DNA of 64,000 bases from IMG/VR virus record IMGVR_UViG_3300022821_000015, positions 1 to 64,000 of that record; one strand, 5' to 3'. The stretch's first letter is position 1. The number at the start of each line of letters is the position of its first letter. The stretch is from a virus. Positions 1-56,657 of this stretch are shown in pieces. Made by a program: the position numbers and the translations under genes. Under the pieces are notes generated by a model. That model was not told the origin of the DNA and searched no databases. It saw only the letters and a list, made by a program, of their open reading frames with translations.

Positions 1-556
1 GGACCAACTCATCAACCGTCTTCTTGTATGTGTCAATGGGCAGGATACCATCACTGTATCGGGTGTTTGCATTTAGTTTACATGCACCTTTTTCGGCAGC
101 AAGGTCTGCGCTTGCTTTGATAAGATAGTAACTCCACGCTTCGGCATACTCGTCAATCAACTCCAAGTTTGGTTCAGAATATGATGAGTCGTGCTTGGCA
201 AGGAAGTATGCTAGGTTGATGATCCCTACACCTAATGGTCTATAACCTTTTGAATGTAGTTCAGCAGCAAGCACTGGATACTTCTGGTAATCAAGTAATG
301 CGTCTAGTCCACGCACCGCAAGTTCACAAGGACGCTTGAAGTCTGATGGTTCTTTAACATTTCCCCAATTCATAGCCGACAATGTACATAAAGCAATCAA
401 TCCATCCTCGTCTTTTAAATCTATAAGTGGCTTAGTTGGTAGGGCAATCTCTTGACAGTTATGAACCAACACATCGTTAGCAAAAAAGTTTTCTGTGTCT
501 TTTACTGTTATGTCGTATACGGCTTCTCGTTTTGCTAATTTAGTTACTTTTGCCAT
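1..556 (-). CDS. nrdA: NrdA fragment C (partial): split-intein IntC (33 aa) + C-terminal extein of ribonucleotide reductase class Ia alpha
   Basis: Not in the ORF track. Hand translation from ATG 556: MAKVTKLAKREAVYDITVKDTENFFANDVLVHN|CQEIALPTKPL...IALCTLSAMNWG...RPLGVGIINLAYFLA; runs off the window edge. Confidence 0.93.
   Translation of the reverse strand, partial: MAKVTKLAKREAVYDITVKDTENFFANDVLVHNCQEIALPTKPLIDLKDEDGLIALCTLSAMNWGNVKEPSDFKRPCELAVRGLDALLDYQKYPVLAAELHSKGYRPLGVGIINLAYFLAKHDSSYSEPNLELIDEYAEAWSYYLIKASADLAAEKGACKLNANTRYSDGILPIDTYKKTVDELV
458..556 (-). mobile_element. Split intein C-half (NrdA site 3)
   Basis: VYDITV...NFFANDVLVHN followed by +1 Cys. Confidence 0.93.
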
Positions 557-2426
557 TTATCATTCTTCCTTGTTTCCATCCAGTTTCTAAATGTTTATTC
601 AACTTATCTTTATGAATTCTCTTGTTCTCATCGTCTTTAGTAACCCACGTATATTGCTTATTAGTATCCGAGGCATATTTATCCTTTATGTCTAGAAATG
701 ACAATAGAACATCAGTTTCCGTTAATTCCCTAGCAGCAACATACCCTCTGTTTTCTGTCCAAAACAAATGATCGCCCGTGCAGACAACTGACTGCATACC
801 ATCATCTGTTTCAACCTTATAAAGCTCCGCGTCTGGATTCGTCATACCAAACGCAGTTATAGATTGAAACTCAACGGTATTTGTCTTGGTATTATATGAC
901 TTAACCAAAACTGTTTCATATTTCTTAATGAATTTATCTACTTCGTGAATTTCGATTGAAAAGATTTCATTATCACATTTTACCGTTATCTTAGTATCTG
1001 CTACCAGACAAAGATTACTCATACGCACTGCGGCTACATCTGGTTTGAATGATGAATGGTCGTTGACGTTATCTACATTCATAAGATATATACGACCAGT
1101 ATTCTTTCGTTCTTCCATAAATGCAGAGAACAGTTCTGATGCTTTTACACGTTTCTTGCGAATGTAGTTATTCTTTTCAGCACGTTCGTATAGTTCTTTG
1201 AACTTATCTTGATCATTAAAGAAGGATTCGTATAGGCCCGGAACATCGCTTGGGCTGAATAATGTAATATCGGCATTTTGGATAAGGCGCTCATAAAACA
1301 ACTTACTGAACTGCACTGAGTAATCAATGTGGCGCACACGATTATCGTCGGTGCCTTTGTTGTTCTTTAGCACGAGTAGGTCTTCTACTTCATAATGCCA
1401 GATGGGATAATGAAGTGTTGCACTATTATGAACAACCATCATCTTATCTGGATTTTTCCCGGCGTAATAATTCTCGGTAACATCTACTGAAAAATCAGCA
1501 AATTCCGGGGTAATATTGGCAGGACGAAGTTTTGTGATTGTAGATTTTTCGGTGTTTGTCCAACAAATATCCCCAACTACAAGATGTTCGGCATCCACAT
1601 AATCCCAAATTTCGTTTCTAAAGACAAGGGTTGGATGAATCGTGCTTGTAATGACAGATGTGCCATTTTCAAGCATGATTTGTATTTGATTTGTTGATGG
1701 CACAAACGGTCGCATGGTGGCTTTAACAAAGTTATATTCATCCATGCCTGATTCAATATTTCGGGAGAGGACATACTCACCCTCACTGACATTTGTTATT
1801 TTTGTATTATTCGTTAATAAACGCATTTGCATTGATGCATTTTTTATTTCCTCATTTGTCATATTGGCCAATGTATCTATTAAATGTTTTACACTAACCT
1901 CATTGTTATTTATACGAATAGTGTCGGAAATATTATAAAATTTTCCTGCATGTTCTAACCCAGAACACGTTTTTACATAAGAATCTGCGCTAACACACCC
2001 ACCACGCACACCGCCTTGTGAATTATGAGTGAGTACCATTTCACCATCGTGTGTCTCGGACGCAAAGAAAGTGTGAGTGTCCTCTACTGTAATATCAATG
2101 TAATCTTCTGTTTGATTATCGTTTTCACATGAATAAAGATAGGTAACTCCGTTGTCAGTGATGATTTCATCAAGCTCTGTTATTTCATCTGGTTTCTTCT
2201 CTACCACATTGCTACCCAGTTGAATCATGATAGGGTGGTTTTCTGAACAGTGAATTACTGTTCCATTAGTAAATTCCAACTTTCGTTGGGCAGACTTTTG
2301 AACTATGGTGTTCCATACATCTGTAACTTGTTTGAAAACAATAATATCTTTATCTTTATCTTTTGTTTTTATTTTCATACCCGCCCGAAGGTCCGATAAT
2401 TTAATTCTCTTAGATTTTTTTGTCAT
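540..2426 (-). CDS. nrdA: NrdA fragment B: IntC(135 aa)-SQGGVRGG-cis intein(191 aa)-extein(138 aa)-IntN(156 aa)
   Basis: Exteins SQGGVRGG, SATLHYPIWH...LKNNKG...ERKNTGRIY...MSNL match class Ia NrdA; likely start is ATG 2426 (MTKKSK) rather than 2465. Confidence 0.93.
   Translation of the reverse strand: MTKKSKRIKLSDLRAGMKIKTKDKDKDIIVFKQVTDVWNTIVQKSAQRKLEFTNGTVIHCSENHPIMIQLGSNVVEKKPDEITELDEIITDNGVTYLYSCENDNQTEDYIDITVEDTHTFFASETHDGEMVLTHNSQGGVRGGCVSADSYVKTCSGLEHAGKFYNISDTIRINNNEVSVKHLIDTLANMTNEEIKNASMQMRLLTNNTKITNVSEGEYVLSRNIESGMDEYNFVKATMRPFVPSTNQIQIMLENGTSVITSTIHPTLVFRNEIWDYVDAEHLVVGDICWTNTEKSTITKLRPANITPEFADFSVDVTENYYAGKNPDKMMVVHNSATLHYPIWHYEVEDLLVLKNNKGTDDNRVRHIDYSVQFSKLFYERLIQNADITLFSPSDVPGLYESFFNDQDKFKELYERAEKNNYIRKKRVKASELFSAFMEERKNTGRIYLMNVDNVNDHSSFKPDVAAVRMSNLCLVADTKITVKCDNEIFSIEIHEVDKFIKKYETVLVKSYNTKTNTVEFQSITAFGMTNPDAELYKVETDDGMQSVVCTGDHLFWTENRGYVAARELTETDVLLSFLDIKDKYASDTNKQYTWVTKDDENKRIHKDKLNKHLETGWKQGRMINGKSN
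543..1010 (-). mobile_element. Split intein N-half (NrdA site 3, at SNL|C) with a C-terminal endonuclease remnant
   Basis: CLVADTKITV block A, CTGDHLFWT block B, no terminal HN; tail WVTKDDENKRIHKDKLNKHLETGWKQGR. Confidence 0.9.
1425..1997 (-). mobile_element. Contiguous intein without a recognisable endonuclease domain (NrdA site 2)
   Basis: CVSADSYV...TSTIHP...DFSVDVTENYYAG...VVHN|S. Confidence 0.9.
2022..2426 (-). mobile_element. Atypical split intein C-half (NrdA site 1)
   Basis: Has block B (CSENHP) and blocks F/G (YIDITVEDTHTFFA...LTHN|S) but no N-terminal Cys. Confidence 0.9.
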
Positions 2427-2574
2427 TTTTTTTATACCTTTTGATTTCTTCTGTAGTCCATTCATGAATTTTTGTCATATGATTAGTAAAATTTCCAGCC
2501 ATAAATTTGTGACCATCTTTGCATCCAAAGGGACATGATATTTTATGTTTCTCTTGAACTCCGGGCATATTCAT
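2410..2574 (-). CDS. 54-aa C2H2 zinc-finger-like protein between the NrdA site-1 intein halves (probable endonuclease remnant)
   Basis: Hand translation MNMPGVQEKHKISCPFGCKDGHKFMAGNFTNHMTKIHEWTTEEIKRYKKNDKKI; GGGAG SD upstream. Confidence 0.6.
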   Translation of the reverse strand: MNMPGVQEKHKISCPFGCKDGHKFMAGNFTNHMTKIHEWTTEEIKRYKKNDKKI

Positions 2575-3518: not shown

Positions 3519-4321
3519 ATTAATCCTATCTTTTTATATCGTTCTATTGTCATATCCAAATACTCAAGAGAGTTATCAATTCCAATATATTTTCTACCAT
3601 TATTTACGGCGGCGATCCCTGTCGTGCCACTACCAGAAAACGGGTCAAGAATAGTATCCCCTTCTACTGATACCAGCTTCAACATCCATTCTGCCAATGG
3701 CACTGGATATGCTGCTGGATGGCTATGTTCTTTTTTGGCATTATTTGATACAGAGATTTCAACATAATCTTTACATCGGGTAAACCCTGCCTGTGGTTCT
3801 TTATCATCGGTGAACCCACTGCCCCATTGTTTTAGTGATTGTCCAACATCTTGTTTACGAAACGAGATATTTTTGGAGAATGTGCCGTTAGCCTTTGGGT
3901 ATGCGTTCGGTTTGCCTGTGTTAGAAAACCACAGAATTCTTTCCCATGATCGTCTTGGTCGGTTGATATTGCCGACAGGGGGGCCATCTGGTTTGATCCA
4001 AATAAGTTCTTCACATTCTTTCCATCCACTTTCTCTAACAGCCAGTCGTGTTCTCAAAACGTAATCTGATATTTCGCCTTTTGAAATATTTTCACGAATG
4101 TTAATCAAACAACTTCCTGTGTCGGAAATCAACGGCTTTACCTTACTCATCCAATCGGTTGTCCATGCTGGATATTTATCTTCACTCACTCCATTATAGA
4201 ATTTTTTGCGCTGTTCGGCATAAGGCGGCGACGTTACCAACGAAGTGAAACTTACATCACTGATATCAGTAACATCGCCATGATAAAGTGTTATATTGTC
4301 CGTTTCGAATACTTTTCTCAT
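3515..4321 (-). CDS. DNA amino-methyltransferase, beta class (N4-C/N6-A)
   Basis: TSPPY catalytic motif precedes HPA and ILDPFSGSGTTG SAM-binding motif. Confidence 0.92.
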   Translation of the reverse strand: MRKVFETDNITLYHGDVTDISDVSFTSLVTSPPYAEQRKKFYNGVSEDKYPAWTTDWMSKVKPLISDTGSCLINIRENISKGEISDYVLRTRLAVRESGWKECEELIWIKPDGPPVGNINRPRRSWERILWFSNTGKPNAYPKANGTFSKNISFRKQDVGQSLKQWGSGFTDDKEPQAGFTRCKDYVEISVSNNAKKEHSHPAAYPVPLAEWMLKLVSVEGDTILDPFSGSGTTGIAAVNNGRKYIGIDNSLEYLDMTIERYKKIGLI

Positions 4322-5082
4322 TATTTTTTCATCTTTGTTATAATCATTTTTAGATCATCTGGGTTGTCGAGATTGACGGTCGATTTATAGTTTTTCCAAT
4401 ATTTTTTGTCAGTAAGTCTATACTGAACCCTTAAACCGACTGACCGAACTTTTAAGTTTAATTTCTTGCTCAAGCGTGAACCACTAGGTCTTGTTTCAAT
4501 CTCAGATTTATTAGGACCATCAAAAAGCGGTGTCCCTAAATTTAATGTATCAGCACCGACGTGATACAGCCCAAGACCGCCGATTTGAATATAGTTATCG
4601 CCCTTTGACATCAAATAATTTCTGATGAATGTGCAATCTTCGTATTTCACGTGTGTAGTGCAATCTTTGCGAATTGGATTCTTATTGAACTTATCCCACG
4701 CTTCTACATCTACTGTAAACGGAAACCCGTCATTTTTGATTAGACTAACATCGTTGACGGATTCGACTAACTTTGCATAAGATTCAGTTTTATTATTTTC
4801 ATTAAGCACGGGCAACACGTTGTCACCAAGTGGATTGATTGCGTTTAATGAATTATCGCTGGTTTTGTATTGGATAGATGTTCCGCCCAACTGAGCATTC
4901 ATATTTAATTTAAGTTCTAGATTGAGAGCGTCGCCAGACTTGGTATTCATAATGGACAAGTCGTGGTTCTTAGAGTTGCCACCTGCGAGTATTGACATAT
5001 CGGTAGTTAAGCCCAAGCTAGAAATAAGCGAGGTGCCGCAAGCTACAACTGTATCTTCGTAAGTAAAACCTTTATTTTTCAT
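4321..5082 (-). CDS. Putative PD-(D/E)XK restriction-endonuclease-like protein
   Basis: GFTYE...HDLSI...NLELK pattern; TAATG overlap with the methyltransferase. Confidence 0.5.
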   Translation of the reverse strand: MKNKGFTYEDTVVACGTSLISSLGLTTDMSILAGGNSKNHDLSIMNTKSGDALNLELKLNMNAQLGGTSIQYKTSDNSLNAINPLGDNVLPVLNENNKTESYAKLVESVNDVSLIKNDGFPFTVDVEAWDKFNKNPIRKDCTTHVKYEDCTFIRNYLMSKGDNYIQIGGLGLYHVGADTLNLGTPLFDGPNKSEIETRPSGSRLSKKLNLKVRSVGLRVQYRLTDKKYWKNYKSTVNLDNPDDLKMIITKMKK

Positions 5083-5160
5083 TTTTATTTTCCTGTAATT
5101 ATTTAATATAGTTATTATACCACTCCTGATATACGTACTTCCATATAAAAATAAATTAGA

Positions 5161-5586
5161 TTATTGTTTGTCTATGTCTTTGGAATCGTATTGAAATAGT
5201 GGCAATATTTCAATTTGTTCTTTACTTATTACTTGCCCATAGTCATAATTTAGAACATAATCTTGAACCATTACTGTATTGGTTATTCCTTCTGGAAGCT
5301 TATAAACACTATATATTATATCATTTTTATCGAATAGTTCGCTATATAATATTGTATAAAATATACCAAGAGCCACGCCAACATCATCATAATGATTGTC
5401 ATTAATGAGTTCCCAAGCGGTTGGCCAAGTTTCTGGTAGGTCGCTTGCAAAGTATTGATTACTTAAAGGTGCGGTTGACCATAAAGTAGCAACATCCTGT
5501 AAGCATTGAAGTGTATCGGAGCCATCAAGGTCCATACGAAATCTACGCCAGTATTTAAGTCTTTCTTCCGAAGAAAGGTTGAACAT
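5161..5586 (-). CDS. Conserved hypothetical phage protein
   Basis: Clean ORF; TAAATA 5 nt before the ATG. Confidence 0.7.
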   Translation of the reverse strand: MFNLSSEERLKYWRRFRMDLDGSDTLQCLQDVATLWSTAPLSNQYFASDLPETWPTAWELINDNHYDDVGVALGIFYTILYSELFDKNDIIYSVYKLPEGITNTVMVQDYVLNYDYGQVISKEQIEILPLFQYDSKDIDKQ

Positions 5587-5614
5587 AAAGGTATTTAGAC
5601 TTGTTTAAATGCGG

Positions 5615-7174
5615 TTATACAAATGTGCGGATGCTGTATGTCATAGTCGCATCGGCACCCGTATCAGTGTAGTAATATAATGTTGTTGTGCCAGCGGCAT
5701 TAACAAGGCTGAAGTTAAATCCAACATCGCCATTGTTTTCGTCATATTCTTCACTAAGCACTTGGTTTGAACTATCGTGTGTGATACGAAGGACACCATT
5801 GCGCACGGCTGAACCTCGTGTAATAGTATATTCAATCTCGACATACTTTTCGTTGGTATCACTGAACGACAACCCTGCGGTTACGATAGCTGATGCTGTA
5901 TCAACTAATGATATAGTTGCGCCCGGTGTTCTTTCTAGTTTACCAAACTTCATACGCTCTTGGTCAAATGACAACGATGCTGCGCCATTGTTTTCAATGC
6001 GAGCAAAGGTAGCGTCATCTGCGTTCGAACGTTCAAATATATCACCGATACTATAGCAATCGCCAGAAAGGAAATCAATAACAGGCGTGGCTGGTGAGCC
6101 AGCACCTGCGCCACTATTGCCAACGTCATTAAAGAAGTTGAATGCGGTGGAAACCTTGCCGTCATAAACGTGGATACCACGGTCATACACATTATCAAAG
6201 GTTGAGTTAATGATTTTAACACCCTTTGGGGTTGTACTTGAATCATCAAGTCCAATCACTGCGCCTTTGAATAAGTTTTCAAAGCGACATCCAGAAAACA
6301 CAACTGAACGAACTTCATCATCGATTTGTGCACCATACGAGTTATTTTCAAAAATACAGTTGTTGAACTTAATATTAGTGGAATACTTTGCGCCAAGGCT
6401 TTCTATGCGCACACATGCTTTGCCTGTACCTAGTGTCGTTGGAATAGATGCTGATTTATCACCAATGAATGTGCAGTTATCGAAATGCATATTATTAACT
6501 TGGTCTACAAGGAAGCAATCTGTATCGGCACCAGCTTCAAATACCATATTCATAATGGTAATATCACGTGGTTGTGTCGCACCAGCAGTAGCGATGTTTG
6601 CACCTATTTGGTTTTTACTATCGGCGGTTTGTGCTACATTAGTGATAGCCGAACCAGTTCTCTTAATAATAGATGAACGTGTTCCTTCGCCTACGAGTGT
6701 AGCATATGCTGGTATTCTGATTGCATCGGTTTGCACAATATATGTTCCTGCGGGAAAGAACAATCTGCGGCGTGTGGCTTGGAATGTTTGCGTAACGAAT
6801 ATATCGGTTAATGCACGGTTAATCGCATCAGTGTCGTCGGTAGCACCATCGCCCAGTGCGCCATAATCACGAACGGTAACGAAGTCGTCTAGTTTATCCT
6901 GTAATGAACGCACGGTAGGAGAACTAGAGCTTACGCCAGTTTGTGCTGTATATCCAATATCACTATCGGCATAGGTGTAACTTGATGTTTCACCGACACT
7001 TGAGTTTTCTGTTAGGATTTGAATGTTTTGAATCGAAGGAGCATCGTCGCCGCCGTTACCAATATATAACTGTCGTGTGTCCACAGACCATCCGAACTCG
7101 CCAACGGCAAGTTGTGGAAGGTTTTCGTTTGTACCTTTCCGATGCGTAATTCTTGAAATTTGCGTAATAGCCAC
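5615..7174 (-). CDS. Virion fibre/spike protein with pectate-lyase-like beta-helix
   Basis: N-terminal LPQLAVGEFGWSVDTRQLYIGNG; VRDYGALGDGATDDTDAINRAL...LFFPAGTY; repetitive beta-helix pattern. Confidence 0.8.
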   Translation of the reverse strand: MAITQISRITHRKGTNENLPQLAVGEFGWSVDTRQLYIGNGGDDAPSIQNIQILTENSSVGETSSYTYADSDIGYTAQTGVSSSSPTVRSLQDKLDDFVTVRDYGALGDGATDDTDAINRALTDIFVTQTFQATRRRLFFPAGTYIVQTDAIRIPAYATLVGEGTRSSIIKRTGSAITNVAQTADSKNQIGANIATAGATQPRDITIMNMVFEAGADTDCFLVDQVNNMHFDNCTFIGDKSASIPTTLGTGKACVRIESLGAKYSTNIKFNNCIFENNSYGAQIDDEVRSVVFSGCRFENLFKGAVIGLDDSSTTPKGVKIINSTFDNVYDRGIHVYDGKVSTAFNFFNDVGNSGAGAGSPATPVIDFLSGDCYSIGDIFERSNADDATFARIENNGAASLSFDQERMKFGKLERTPGATISLVDTASAIVTAGLSFSDTNEKYVEIEYTITRGSAVRNGVLRITHDSSNQVLSEEYDENNGDVGFNFSLVNAAGTTTLYYYTDTGADATMTYSIRTFV

Positions 7175-35435: not shown

Positions 35436-36200
35436 TTACTTATTTATCCAATACTTTTTTATTTTTTCATCAATCTCGTGGGGTTTTGGGTCGCCATGAC
35501 ACACGACAACAGCACAATCTTCTGGTAATATGAAAGGAATATCTGGCTGCAAATACGACGAACGTTCAGTTCCGTTGTTTATCTTGCCGCCTTTTTCAAG
35601 TTCCCATTTCCAAGACATTGCCCATTCACGTGGCCACCACGCCTTTTGATCTGGATTATTGTCAAAATATTGTGTTAGAAAATCTTGGTCGCCTCGGAAT
35701 CGGGTTATGATTCCTTGAATATTATTGCTCCATTCTTTCCATATACCCGTAACTTGTTCTGGACTAAACTTCATAATAGAACTGTTGCTTACCCGATAGT
35801 CACTAACATACTGGCGATTGAAGTCTTGGCAAATACTAAACTTATCTTGTTGATGATCGAAGAACTTATCGATGCTATTAATGATTACTAAATCTAGATC
35901 AAAATATAAAGTATTATCACCAAAGCCATTGGTGGGATCGAACATACACATTTTGAACCACCACGCCTTACGATGATCAAACATCTTGATACCGATATTA
36001 GACCAGTCGGGAATAGGAATAACACGACAAGGTATTTTACTTGCAATGCTGCTGTTATCAGTTATTACATTAAATCTTATTTCGTGTGTTGTATTACGAA
36101 CGACAGCGTTGTAAAGATTGATTACATAATCTTCACTGTATTTGTCGCCAACCCATACACAAACAACGTCAAGGGTCTTAATCGGGTGTTCCGCCAACAT
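35436..36200 (-). CDS. Glycosyltransferase (GT-A)
   Basis: CVWVGDKYSEDYV, WWFKM, LYFDLD, NSSIM, GDQD, HGDPKP. Confidence 0.85.
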   Translation of the reverse strand: MLAEHPIKTLDVVCVWVGDKYSEDYVINLYNAVVRNTTHEIRFNVITDNSSIASKIPCRVIPIPDWSNIGIKMFDHRKAWWFKMCMFDPTNGFGDNTLYFDLDLVIINSIDKFFDHQQDKFSICQDFNRQYVSDYRVSNSSIMKFSPEQVTGIWKEWSNNIQGIITRFRGDQDFLTQYFDNNPDQKAWWPREWAMSWKWELEKGGKINNGTERSSYLQPDIPFILPEDCAVVVCHGDPKPHEIDEKIKKYWINK

Positions 36201-36528
36201 CTTTTCTTTGAATATCTGCTGATAAAGGTTCTGGGTAATATACTTCAAAACATACTACATCGGTTAGTGCCCTGAACCGATGATACTCGTTCGGCTTGCA
36301 TATAGTGATGTCGCCAGCTTTTAATAAGGTAGTATCAACTAAGTCATAATCATTCTTATGAACTTCAATCTCAAGCTCGCCTTCTACTACATAAAAAGCA
36401 TTATGTTTATACGAGTGTTTATGCAGTGAACAGAATCCACCAGCCTTAATATCAATGCGGTGAAACTCCACAAATGGCGTTTCTAACAGGAGTTCAGTCT
36501 GACCCCATACTTTTCCTTGCTTGCTCAT
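36178..36528 (-). CDS. Cupin-domain protein
   Basis: GKVWG...SLHKH...FYV..G...HRF. Confidence 0.85.
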   Translation of the reverse strand: MSKQGKVWGQTELLLETPFVEFHRIDIKAGGFCSLHKHSYKHNAFYVVEGELEIEVHKNDYDLVDTTLLKAGDITICKPNEYHRFRALTDVVCFEVYYPEPLSADIQRKDVGGTPD

Positions 36529-36662
36529 TTTTTATTCTTTTTCATTTGCTTCTTTACAAAGGATACCGATTTCTCCGGTGGCATATTACCAACATCAATA
36601 TAATAAACCTTACGTGTCGGGGCACTCTGAATACGCTTTACAATAATATCATCTTCGCTCAT
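36525..36662 (-). CDS. 45-aa protein resembling the T4 gp20 portal clip segment
   Basis: Hand translation MSEDDIIVKRIQSAPTRKVYYIDVGNMPPEKSVSFVKKQMKKNKK; AGGA SD; ATGA overlap with the cupin gene. Confidence 0.7.
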   Translation of the reverse strand: MSEDDIIVKRIQSAPTRKVYYIDVGNMPPEKSVSFVKKQMKKNKK

Positions 36663-36671
36663 TTTTATTTC

Positions 36672-36992
36672 CTATCTATATGGTTGATAATATTCATACC
36701 CGTATCCCCAACGCCAAGGAAATGGTAATCGTGGATGCCCGCCTATACGAACACCGTAATACATTAATGCGGCGATTATTGGATAACCTTGACGGGTAAC
36801 AGATGATGCCAATATTAAATCAGCACGTTTTCTTTCTTCTGCTGTGCCGCCAGCCCAATAGGATTTATCATGTTCAACACAATGTCCTTCCCATGGTGGC
36901 GGGCGTCTAAGAAACGTTTTCCAAAACCAAGACATTCCGCCAGAACATCCATCGGTCGTAAAGGGTTTAGATGGTAAGTTGCTATTATTCAT
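36672..36992 (-). CDS. Hypothetical protein (phospholipase-A2-like TDGCS...CxxHD motif)
   Basis: FTTDGCSGG...CVEHDKSYWAGG...RWGYG. Confidence 0.7.
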   Translation of the reverse strand: MNNSNLPSKPFTTDGCSGGMSWFWKTFLRRPPPWEGHCVEHDKSYWAGGTAEERKRADLILASSVTRQGYPIIAALMYYGVRIGGHPRLPFPWRWGYGYEYYQPYR

Positions 36993-37047
36993 AGTTATAT
37001 TTATATGTGTATATTACTAGGATATTATTTTCCTGTATAAATACATT

Positions 37048-53588: not shown

Positions 53589-54689
53589 TTATCTCCAGCC
53601 ACTCATTCCAGATATAGATGAGAAAAACGGCAATGGTGCCACCATTTGCTCATTATGGTCCCGCATATGCTTTTCTAACGTGGGATTATAGTCTTTTAAT
53701 ACCGTTGCCATACGCACTACAAGCAATGAAGCCATTACCAAGTCGTCGTTTTCACCTTCCTTTGATGAATATGACCGTCCCTTTGCAACAAACGTTTTCA
53801 TTTCAGATATAAGTGGTTTGCTATAAACAATCATTCGTTCTGATTCAATCATTACTTTAAACTTAGCGCAAGCCGCAATCTTAGAGTTCTCAGTCGTGTT
53901 AAATCCTTTGCGGAACTTCCTAACATTACCAAGTTTCTTCGGTTCTGACAGGAATATACCATCGATATTTTCCTCACCAAGTTCGGCAATATTGATTAAT
54001 GCAGCTTCTCCGATTGAGTTATTTTCAACAGAATAATATACATCATTTTTTGTCCCTGTAACATCGGTTAGGTGGGCACAAATAGATTTCATTACTCTCA
54101 CTTGTGTTGGAATATCGGACTTATTATGCATCCATTCACCGCATTGAATCATTTCAGGTAGTTCATATATTTGGATGGCTGCGTTGTCGCCGCCTGTTCC
54201 CATAGCGGGGTCCAATCCAACAAGATATACATGACCTTTTGATGGTTCTTTATACCATCGCACCTGACCATCCACTCTTACTGGCGTAACACCTTCCATA
54301 TCAACTAGCTTCAACCCGCTAATCAAAGTTTCTTCGTGAATAATAAACTCACAGTTTGATGCCAATACTGTATTAGCATAATATCGGTGGCCATCTTCGA
54401 CTTCTACCAAATCAAACACAGCCCGAACACCAATATATTCTCGTGCAATAAGTGCAAGATGTCCCTCTGAACTTAATACCACATCTCCTATATCAAAATC
54501 CTTTGCCTCTTTATAGTCAATCAAGTTTTGATATAATTTATGATCTTCTGTGCATTCCAATATTACACCTTGTTCAAAAGTCAGCTTCCATACTGCCTTA
54601 TCTCCCATAAAAGATACTCCGGAAAAATCCTTATAGCCATCCGGCGTCAATACTTTATAGTTTTTTATGTTTGGAGCTAAATCACCCAT
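53589..54689 (-). CDS. terL: Terminase large subunit C-part: atypical IntC (112 aa, 54354-54689) + nuclease domain
   Basis: VLTPDGY, CTEDHKL, VFDLVEV...VLASN|CEF...LDPAMGTGGD...ENN...DDLVM. Confidence 0.93.
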   Translation of the reverse strand: MGDLAPNIKNYKVLTPDGYKDFSGVSFMGDKAVWKLTFEQGVILECTEDHKLYQNLIDYKEAKDFDIGDVVLSSEGHLALIAREYIGVRAVFDLVEVEDGHRYYANTVLASNCEFIIHEETLISGLKLVDMEGVTPVRVDGQVRWYKEPSKGHVYLVGLDPAMGTGGDNAAIQIYELPEMIQCGEWMHNKSDIPTQVRVMKSICAHLTDVTGTKNDVYYSVENNSIGEAALINIAELGEENIDGIFLSEPKKLGNVRKFRKGFNTTENSKIAACAKFKVMIESERMIVYSKPLISEMKTFVAKGRSYSSKEGENDDLVMASLLVVRMATVLKDYNPTLEKHMRDHNEQMVAPLPFFSSISGMSGWR

Positions 54690-55702
54690 TTTTCAAAATC
54701 ATCCTTCGTTTTTAGTATTTGATAATTGGTTTTAGTCGTGAAGAGCCATACCTCATACGAATATCCTTGTTTTATAACTGCTTCCCTTTTACGAAGATTA
54801 TTTACTATTCTACCATCATAACCATCACGGCCATTGGCATTCCACCACCACATTGATTTAACTTCAATGATACGATTTTCATCTGGAATAAAAATATCTG
54901 GATAATATTTCTTTACTCGGTTTTTTTCATATGAATTATATTGAAAGACTTCTATTACATATTCTTCATAATCGTTATGTACACTAATAGAATCTTCTGT
55001 ATATGTTTCTAGTAAAGCATCGATCACCATATTTTCATAGCCTCGAATACCAATAATTTTACCGCTCGGGAGTTCATAATCTTTTACCGAAGAGTTACCT
55101 TTTCCAGACTTTTTTGAAATGTTTGGAAGTAAAAAGGTATTACCCACACCGAACTTTTCAATGTTTGTCTTGCGACGTTTTTCATTTATTTCATTCTGTT
55201 CGTCAGAAGATTTGGCCCCATTGGTCGCCGCCGATGCTTTCCAGTTAGAATAGTATTCATTGCCATATCTATCCAGTTTGGTCTTCTTGGCCTTATCCTT
55301 AAATTCGTCGCTTTGTGTCGCCCATTCTGTGCCATATTTTGCACGGAAGGTTTCTCTGGATTTTTCCACTTGTTCTTGGATTTGCTCGGGTGTTCTCTTT
55401 GATGCAGCATTGGATTTGTTCTCAGAATCCGAGTGTCGTTGCTCATCTGTCCAGTTTTGTTTGGTTTCCGACACACTTTTTCCAACACATTTTGGTGCGC
55501 CACAACTATTAGCATATGTATGTGTATGTTGATAAAATGTTAAAGATAATCCACATCTACATTTTGGAGAAATACCCGTGATGTATTCTTCATAATAGGA
55601 CTGATATGTATAACTATGTTGTTTAAGATGTTTCGTGAATTGCCCATTTGATTTACAATATTTTTCATTGTCAATTTTTGATGTTTCGTATGTAGCACTC
55701 AT
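54677..55702 (-). CDS. Putative homing endonuclease between the TerL intein halves (PD-(D/E)XK)
   Basis: CRCG, KYG repeats, RGYE...YYPDIFIP...IIEVKS. Confidence 0.85.
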   Translation of the reverse strand: MSATYETSKIDNEKYCKSNGQFTKHLKQHSYTYQSYYEEYITGISPKCRCGLSLTFYQHTHTYANSCGAPKCVGKSVSETKQNWTDEQRHSDSENKSNAASKRTPEQIQEQVEKSRETFRAKYGTEWATQSDEFKDKAKKTKLDRYGNEYYSNWKASAATNGAKSSDEQNEINEKRRKTNIEKFGVGNTFLLPNISKKSGKGNSSVKDYELPSGKIIGIRGYENMVIDALLETYTEDSISVHNDYEEYVIEVFQYNSYEKNRVKKYYPDIFIPDENRIIEVKSMWWWNANGRDGYDGRIVNNLRKREAVIKQGYSYEVWLFTTKTNYQILKTKDDFEKWVI

Positions 55703-55708
55703 TTATAT

Positions 55709-55746
55709 TCTCCTTGAAATCGTTTCATACTTATTTATCAAGGAAA
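55709..55746 (-). promoter_or_regulatory. SD-sequestering hairpin with a late promoter in the loop
   Basis: TTTCCTTGA-TAAATAagtatgaaacgatt-TCAAGGAGA before the endonuclease ATG. Confidence 0.65.
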
Positions 55747-56657
55747 TCATCATCTCTAAATTTTTTATACAGTGTTCCTATATCAACAATACTAGTGGCA
55801 CCATTTTCATCTTGAATAGTTATCAAAGAAGAGTGTACCACGCAACAGTGTTCCCGCCTGAATTTTTCAGTACCAATAGCCTGTTCTTCGTCGTCTGCCC
55901 ATTTTTGGTCACGGTCTGGATGTTCGTGCCAGAATGATCTGAATGCTTTAAATCCATTCGTTCCAATACCCGTATCATTTCCAAAATCATCTACAGTTTT
56001 GTTTGCCATTTTCCATTCTAGGGCAAACTGATCTTCATCGGAGTTTGGCGTTGATGTGATAATACATTTACCACCTGTTGCTAACGTAGGACGCATTGAA
56101 GTCCAGAATTCACTGGCGATTGTATTACGAACGAATGCAAATTCGTCTAGATATAATAACGTGATTGACATACCACGACCCGTGTTTTCTGTCGTAGCTT
56201 GTGCCACCAATCTTGAACCGTTATCAAACTCCAATGAGTTTTTGTTATATGTAGTTGCGCCGCATCTAATGAAATCGGGACATAGTTCGTAAGCGTATCG
56301 CACACGTTGCATAATCTCAGCTGCACCTGATTGTTTATGTGCTGCTACAAGAATAATACTATCAGGCTTGAACATAGCAAACCATAATAGGTATCCCGCT
56401 GCTGTTGTCGATTTTCCCGTCTGTCGTGGCATAAGCGCAATGGCAAAACGATTGTGGTGATATGTATCCACCAGTCTTTCTTGAAACTCGAACGGTGAAT
56501 ATTTAAGTTGACCCTTGGTAGGGTGCTGAATATAGAAATAATTTTCCAGAAAATATTTATGACCAGTTATCGGATCAGCACATTTTGCAAACTCTATCAT
56601 TTGCTCACGTGTATATACCATTTTCATATTTGGTTTTTTAACTAGTTCTTCTGACAT
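55731..56657 (-). CDS. terL: Terminase large subunit N-part (ATPase) + 37-aa IntN (55734-55844)
   Basis: PRQTGKST, GRG, LYLDEFAF, ITSTP, FRREHC|CVVHSSLITI. Confidence 0.95.
   Translation of the reverse strand: MSEELVKKPNMKMVYTREQMIEFAKCADPITGHKYFLENYFYIQHPTKGQLKYSPFEFQERLVDTYHHNRFAIALMPRQTGKSTTAAGYLLWFAMFKPDSIILVAAHKQSGAAEIMQRVRYAYELCPDFIRCGATTYNKNSLEFDNGSRLVAQATTENTGRGMSITLLYLDEFAFVRNTIASEFWTSMRPTLATGGKCIITSTPNSDEDQFALEWKMANKTVDDFGNDTGIGTNGFKAFRSFWHEHPDRDQKWADDEEQAIGTEKFRREHCCVVHSSLITIQDENGATSIVDIGTLYKKFRDDDFLDK

Follow-up and report, generated by a model that had tools for sequence, protein, structure and literature searches.

A gene of 45 codons in the viral DNA studied here encodes a stand-alone homologue of one piece of the T4-type portal protein; its product is not a portal. 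The DNA analysed, called the window below, comprises 64,000 nucleotides of an IMG/VR virus record. Judged by its gene structure, from which we infer expression, the mini-gene is a real, expressed-looking accessory gene, and together with its relatives it forms a small, apparently undescribed family. We suggest, with a probability of roughly 0.4 and by analogy with phage T4, that the mini-protein is a selected mimic of the portal clip tip which would compete for a partner docking at the clip, most likely the large terminase.

The mini-gene and its surroundings

The mini-gene is the middle member of a tightly packed string of genes on the minus strand, and the surrounding region is rich in glycosyltransferase-like genes. 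The features of this string are:

36525..36662, minus strand: gene of the 45-aa mini-protein, ATG start, recognized from the list of open reading frames and by Portal_T4 homology
36670..36673, minus strand: Shine–Dalgarno-like AGGA, 7 nt before the ATG of the mini-gene and partly within the stop codon of the 106-aa gene
36525..36528, minus strand: ATGA overlap formed by the TGA of the mini-gene (36527-36525) and the ATG of the cupin gene (36528-36526)
36672..36992, minus strand: upstream gene of the string, 106 aa, Cys-rich with a His-Asp motif, PHROG 6098, function unknown
36178..36528, minus strand: downstream gene of the string, 116-aa cupin, Pfam Cupin_2 with E = 8.5e-11
36998..37005, minus strand: TATAAATA, core motif of T4 late promoters, located 5 nt before the 106-aa gene begins
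37036-37043, opposite orientation: second copy of TATAAATA, within the 55-bp divergent spacer 36993-37047

The original prediction had described an open reading frame with a Shine–Dalgarno sequence and ATGA coupling, and this description is correct in both respects (AGGA at 36673-36670 for the frame at 36525-36662 on the minus strand). An ATGA overlap of stop and start codon is the arrangement typical of translational coupling. On the upstream side, a spacer of 9 nt lies between the TAG stop codon of the 106-aa gene and the mini-gene. The GC content of the mini-gene is 0.35 compared to 0.39 in the window, its skew is unremarkable, and the composition is uniform across the region. Identical copies of the reading frame are present on 9 contigs, and no diverged copy is known. 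As the mini-gene is in frame with the 106-aa gene across a single TAG, we considered a read-through fusion of the two proteins but rejected it. TAG is an ordinary stop codon in the window, where it terminates 10 of the 71 long open reading frames, and the homologues of the 106-aa protein stop at the same place.

The 106-aa protein displays the Cys-rich motif T-D-G-C-S-G-G ... H-D-x-x-Y-W and belongs to no Pfam family. A homologue is encoded in a complete 64-kb high-GC phage (L083, 5998-6303) between the portal gene and a 401-aa open reading frame; this position beside the portal gene suggests a head-associated role, which is striking for the neighbour of a portal fragment. The cupin is conserved in many contigs of marine T4-like phages which do not have the mini-gene. 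The spacer of 55 bp separates the 106-aa gene from a GT8-like gene, and each of the two copies of TATAAATA is located 4-5 nt from a start codon. The motif occurs 9 times in the window where 8.3 instances are expected, which is not significant, and only the paired placement is suggestive; the copy upstream of the 106-aa gene may be a candidate late promoter of the mini-gene string. Scans for sigma-70 promoters and terminators gave results at chance level, and Rfam yielded no matches.

The source record is a 78-kb fragment in IMG/VR with an estimated completeness of 22%. It encodes a gp41-type helicase, a UvsX-type recombinase, a gp32-type SSB, an RNR with inteins and an interrupted large terminase. 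The source is a large T4-type phage, and the terminases closest to its own are found in the 440-490 kb phages Atu_ph07, SCTP-2 and Phosso. The terminase region is organized as follows:

55731-56657, minus strand: N-terminal ATPase part of the large terminase
54677-55702: 341-aa homing-endonuclease-like open reading frame separating the two terminase frames
53589-54689, minus strand: C-terminal part of the large terminase

The mini-gene had been predicted to lie far from the head genes. This claim has to be qualified: the large terminase is situated 17 kb away within the window (53.6-56.7 kb), and a full portal gene that could serve as a reference was not found in the phage's own 78-kb record. 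A portal search in the syntenic 90-kb relative and in other cupin-linked contigs found none except on one distant 154-kb contig, and the search was also negative in the contigs with a mini-gene after regA and in the contigs with the closest terminase. Fragments of other virion proteins (Gp23, prohead protease and gp19 tube) were searched for in the record, and none were found.

The first ~112 residues of the C-terminal terminase frame do not match the terminases of the relatives, and none of the group I intron models of Rfam matched at the interruption. Candidate readings of the interruption are an intron, a split without an intein and a genuine terminase of two pieces. A fragment of the RNR large subunit (540-2465, minus strand) carries Hint/intein domains, with matches to Intein_splicing and PT-HINT. 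Because of the RNR inteins and the insertion in the terminase we regard the genome as rich in selfish elements.

Homology to the stem end and clip tip of the portal

The mini-protein is recognized by the Pfam profile Portal_T4 (PF07230) with E = 3.7e-11 and 42.9 bits (cut-off 22.9), residues 1-44 of the reading frame aligning to positions 190-233 of the 433 positions of the profile. A search with Portal_T4 over the phage's own genome record detected the mini-gene at 41.2 bits. The portal family PHROG 213 matches with E = 6.5e-11 (positions 255-298 of 528), and with phmmer against the PDB residues 3-40 of the reading frame align to residues 268-305 of T4 gp20 (E = 1.4e-5). The matching segment is the conserved ED..IYR..RAPERR.FYIDVGN(M/L)P which had been recognized in the original prediction. 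When the mini-protein was used as a tblastn query against 50,697 phage records, 1,896 records had matches; those listed fall in the portal gene with at most 46% identity, and two records have a second matching place. A search of the ESM Atlas with the mini-protein gave no usable match.

In the numbering of T4 gp20 the mini-protein corresponds to residues ~266-310. This stretch begins with the end of helix alpha5 in the stem and continues through the first strand of the clip and the GNMP tip to helix alpha6. The mini-protein thus contains 13 residues of helix alpha5 and approximately the first 32 of the 80 residues of the clip. The earlier designation as a portal clip segment is therefore apt as far as the homology to the stem end and the clip tip is concerned, but the whole clip is not covered. 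The full architecture of a portal, with wing, two stem helices, complete clip and crown, is absent from the 45-aa protein. Neither the cupin nor the 106-aa protein in the flanks is related to portals, so that the copy is cleanly trimmed; that the reading frame is diverged, trimmed and equipped with its own start and stop had been predicted correctly.

An AF2 model built from an alignment of 20 sequences has a mean pLDDT of 83 and predicts helices at residues 3-13 and 15-18, an extended stretch at residues 19-28 and a further helix at residues 29-43. The order of the elements, helix, extended strand, tip loop and helix, is the same as in the portal, and the clip strand is unpaired in the model. 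Foldseek with this model returned 3JA7 as the sole match, which agrees with the portal homology but is not significant (E = 4.4).

A family of stand-alone clip-tip proteins

Other short open reading frames with this motif, for which a search had been proposed, do exist. We searched 1.84 billion representative proteins exhaustively with HMMER and found homologues of 45-60 aa which match the query from end to end (P0007, P0011, P0027, P0030, P0036, P0037, P0038 and P0045); a profile search added P0136. Altogether there are about ten clusters of stand-alone homologues of 45-60 aa with a common start point, and in addition tandem-double forms. The family is spread sparsely over uncultured T4-like phages. 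Residues 1-44 of the query match residues 1-44 of P0007, P0038 and P0045 (alignment A1, ten members). The members start at the Met before an E/D-D motif and end soon after alpha6 with a Lys-rich tail, and so does the query. Several of the mini-genes sit on long contigs of 125 kb (P0036), 109 kb (P0038) and 33 kb, which argues that they are not fragments from contig ends.

In two longer proteins, P0003 and P0006 (92-103 aa), two copies of the strand-tip-helix unit matched the profile, and in P0006 the stem-helix part is missing from both copies. P0019, of the same size range (92-103 aa), resembles a third tandem double, with only one half matching the profile. Since the tandem doubles repeat mainly the strand-tip-helix unit, this unit is probably the part to which they point as the functional core.

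The profile search returned 214 short matches. Of the 120 that were listed, we excluded the majority, which are broken portal genes or fragments of reads. The broken-gene fragments (P0055-P0163) start at the conserved internal Met of the portal and continue into portal sequence or frameshift debris. We therefore caution that most of the short PF07230 proteins in public metagenome sets are frameshifted or truncated portals, which can be mistaken for true minis. A few short public "portal" proteins end in an adapter-derived peptide.

At the DNA level, an exact 26-mer scan for more mini-genes found nothing. A degenerate pattern specific for the minis (K-R) identified the viral loci L087 and L088 and, among metagenome contigs, L091 together with two chance matches on eukaryote-like contigs; in 185,579 prokaryote genomes it was not found. 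A looser pattern was swamped by true portals. For cultured phages, tblastn with three minis against the 50,697 records gave only portal genes among the matches listed. A T4-like contig bearing regA (L265, 572-967, plus strand) contains a 132-aa frame with a weak clip-like C-terminal segment (P-E-R-R-V-W-Y-I-N ... helix; E = 0.006 with the mini profile); this frame may encode a longer protein whose tail resembles the clip. In the literature we found no published description of natural stand-alone portal-clip proteins.

Distribution and genomic contexts

In the window and in L087, L088 and L091 the mini-gene is encoded outside of a portal gene and within an intact string of phage genes. In the latter three loci it directly follows regA in a gp44-gp62-regA string and overlaps the end of regA. 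In the syntenic relative L003 the genes to either side of the slot are shared with the window at 68-78% nucleotide identity, and the slot itself is filled by 2.4 kb of unrelated genes with no mini-gene. The L003 segment taking the place of the 106-aa gene and the mini-gene (3559-6004) holds a KdsA-like gene of 271 aa and four other open reading frames. From this comparison of the two sequences, the position upstream of the cupin is seen to be a swap site for accessory cassettes.

Among cupin-linked viral loci, of which 172 were found, none of the 80 examined has a mini-gene. Similarly, 80 viral contigs were retrieved with the regA protein of L087, and the mini-gene is present only on L087's own contig and absent from the other 79. 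As L003, the cupin-linked loci and the relatives of regA do not carry it, the mini-gene is a sporadic accessory gene and not a part of the core packaging apparatus.

Selection, sequence changes and origin

According to the original prediction, neutral divergence would have spoken against it. Instead, the sole orthologous pair with DNA sequence indicates purifying selection. The two orthologous mini-genes follow regA:

L087, 9744-9884
L091, 9079-9228

For this pair, which represents a different member of the family from the query, pN is 0.30 and pS is 0.74 (Fisher p = 9e-5), and the identities at the three codon positions are 0.57, 0.82 and 0.45. As pN is well below pS, the frame is under purifying selection in this pair. 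The two mini-proteins are 51% identical compared with 89-97% for the flanking genes, and at the DNA level the identity is 61% compared with 84-92% in the flanks. Synonymous sites are saturated in the mini-gene, and dS of the flanks is 0.5-1.2. The divergence of the mini-genes beyond that of their neighbours suggests either fast evolution or replacement of alleles. In L091 an extra 41-aa open reading frame follows the mini-gene.

We also compared the ten minis with 103 portals. At the position equivalent to gp20 274, 95% of the portals have Tyr or His, and the minis have Lys (six), Glu (three) or Asp (one). Position 278 is Arg in 96% of the portals and variable in the ten minis. The query has Lys at the equivalent of 274 and Ser at the equivalent of 278. 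Kept in the ten minis are the strand F/Y-Y-I/V-D-V-G as well as G290, M/L292, P293, K296 and A297. The residues at 274 and 278 which were lost in the minis presumably pack inside the full portal. Such a resurfacing would fit a protein that has long existed free in solution and continues to expose the strand and the tip.

In a tree of 38 columns the minis fall into two groups of seven and three members, not beside different lineages of portals, and cluster far beyond what is obtained with shuffled labels (0/500 shuffles). With AU tests neither a single clade of all minis (p = 0.37) nor a grouping of the query with jumbo-type portals (p = 0.17) is rejected. The sequence most similar to the query is a portal fragment of 119 aa (P0002, 57% identity), whose segment groups with the portals of jumbo phages.

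Discussion

The T4 portal protein gp20 has its stem at residues 255-278 and 359-377 and its clip at residues 279-358 (PMC4493910). The clip protrudes outside the capsid and is the attachment site for gp17 and later for gp13. The tip residues N291, M292, R295 and K296 face gp17; packaging is abolished in the mutants N291A-M292A and R295A-K296A, and M292I is cold-sensitive (PMC4493910). The statement of the original prediction that the terminase docks at this segment thus has its basis in T4 gp17. Moreover, a peptide of 24 aa, gp20 288-311, binds gp17 and inhibits packaging in vitro (Lin, Rao and Black 1999, cited in PMC4493910). In the portal ring one subunit contributes a single strand to the clip sheet and its neighbour two, and this sheet is the only main-chain to main-chain contact of the ring (PMC4493910). 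The C-terminal arm of gp13 docks between two adjacent alpha6 helices and a clip strand (PMC12929587).

We suggest that the mini-protein could act in the following way. The free mini-protein would present the clip strand, the tip and helix alpha6. With these elements it could occupy the site by which a partner protein otherwise attaches to the portal clip. This partner would most likely be the large terminase, the packaging ATPase of the gp17 type, and the binding would interfere with or modulate the docking of the motor to the portal. We rank the terminase first because for no other partner is such a small fragment known to be sufficient; the case in point is the T4 peptide in the account cited above. 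Since the gene is sporadic and fast-evolving, the target would more probably be the motor of a co-infecting related phage, or the effect a conditional tuning, than an essential step in the phage's own packaging. Both the binding to a terminase and the choice of the terminase as partner are inferred. Several points speak against this mode of action. With a self-made terminase inhibitor the phage could harm its own packaging, and a mechanism of immunity is not apparent. The tip of the mini-protein, G-N-M-P-P-E-K, resembles the tip of P0002, which argues against a specialization on foreign motors. The best-conserved part, the beta-strand, pairs in the ring with the neighbouring subunit and not with gp17 (PMC4493910), and the result with the T4 peptide, as cited there, was obtained in vitro and with a distant phage. 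Finally, the terminase is not the sole candidate, as gp13 uses the same surface of the clip (PMC12929587).

It has to be asked whether the mini-gene has a function at all. It could be a leftover, that is a duplicated or recombined portal fragment which starts at a conserved internal Met, is open by chance and is neither made nor used. Portals indeed have a conserved Met just before E-D, many short database "portals" are broken genes starting there, the query frame has no known divergent orthologue with DNA sequence, and neither a single origin of the minis (AU p = 0.37) nor a jumbo-type descent (p = 0.17) is rejected. However, no further portal sequence flanks the reading frame, which has a Shine–Dalgarno sequence and is tightly coupled in a gene string. 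Family members elsewhere (L087/L091) are under purifying selection, all ten minis are substituted away from the portal consensus at presumably buried positions, and they cluster on the tree beyond shuffled labels (0/500). In addition all minis end soon after alpha6, whereas broken fragments run on into portal sequence or debris. A non-functional leftover is therefore in our view very unlikely. Just as improbable is a direct action on the portal or the neck. Here the free strand and the helix would insert into the portal clip or bind the C-terminal arm of a gp13-type adaptor, and the formation of the portal ring or the joining of head and tail would be capped or poisoned, either in a competitor or as a timing device. 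In favour of this the clip sheet is formed between subunits as the only main-chain contact of the ring (PMC4493910), and the clip strand is the most conserved element of the minis and unpaired in the AF2 model. The docking of the gp13 arm between two alpha6 helices and a clip strand (PMC12929587) also points in this direction, but gp13 needs two adjacent alpha6 helices, which a monomeric mini-protein cannot offer. There is further no experimental precedent for a dominant-negative fragment of such a kind, and it would be as costly for the phage's own assembly as a terminase inhibitor.

A different partner would be a sensor of the host immunity. The mini-protein might present the part of the portal monomer that is recognized by the sensor and occupy Avs4, Avs11 or another sensor acting at the level of the motif without activating it, in a manner similar to DSAD1. 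The premise of the original prediction that Avs4 senses portals is sound (PMC12642450) and extends to Avs11 (PMC12803255): portals trigger both directly, and Avs4 recognizes portal monomers. Avs sensors frequently bind virion proteins at the surfaces used for assembly (PMC12803255), and the strand which is strongly conserved and unpaired in the minis serves as such a surface in the portal ring (PMC4493910). With DSAD1 and DSR2 there is also a precedent for a phage protein which mimics a virion protein in order to trap a sensor (PMC10973363), and a sporadic distribution, variable gene strings and fast divergence are typical of counter-defence genes. On the other hand, the Avs proteins are described as readers of whole folds by extended interfaces and not of short motifs (PMC12803255). 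Because the recognition is fold-wide, a piece of 45 residues should compete poorly with the full portal, or it might even trigger the sensor. Moreover, the known anti-Avs proteins of the EVADES survey (ORF55 and ORF83) are not portal mimics. Overall we consider an immune decoy rather unlikely, but it is the strongest rival of the terminase reading.

We therefore prefer, tentatively, competition for the large terminase. To our knowledge, mutants and one synthetic peptide are the only tools with which the docking step between portal and motor has been studied until now. If the minis bind a terminase, they would be natural evolved inhibitors of this step, and their variants could be used for mapping the interface and for studies on competition in co-infections. 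If they bind a sensor, they would be the first portal-derived counter-defence proteins and would reveal the part that immunity detects in the unassembled portal. We give even odds to the more general view that the clip-tip minis are a new class of phage accessory genes acting as free competitive mimics, be it as weapons against the motors of co-infecting phages or as bait for host sensors. They may also be one instance of a wider "self-mimic" habit of mini-genes in giant phages. With a gene of 45 codons and about ten natural variants the question is directly testable by ordinary assays.

Comparison with known systems

DSAD1 of the SPbeta-like phages is a small phage protein which imitates a virion protein, the tail tube, and occupies the binding site on its partner DSR2 (PMC10973363). 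DSAD1 acts on a known immune effector, and the structure of their complex has been solved, whereas the mini-protein is likened to it by logic only. In contrast to DSAD1, the mini-protein is a recognizable sequence homologue of a piece of a virion protein.

The likeness to the clip of gp20 itself (PF07230; PDB 3JA7 and 6UZC) lies in the sequence over gp20 268-305 with the conserved strand motif and the G-N-M-P tip. Unlike gp20, the mini-protein covers 44 of the 433 profile positions. The wing, the crown, the tunnel loop, the second stem helix and the clip hairpin are all missing, and it therefore cannot form a ring or a channel. It further differs from gp20 in that it has other residues in place of the presumably buried Tyr/His 274 and Arg 278 and that it is encoded apart from any portal gene.

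The closest parallel in size is the gp20 288-311 peptide described in the work cited above. Its whole equivalent is present in the mini-protein as residues 23-45, including N26-M27 and K31 at the places which correspond to the N-M and K residues where mutations abolish T4 packaging, and the tandem-double minis repeat mainly the unit equivalent to this peptide. Unlike the synthetic peptide, the mini-protein is natural, encoded in a genome and presumably selected, and it adds the clip strand and a part of the stem helix. Its phage is only distantly related to T4, and the binding to the terminase is here a prediction. With this qualification we propose that the mini-protein is a mimic of a virion protein and possibly the natural counterpart of the gp20 peptide inhibitor.
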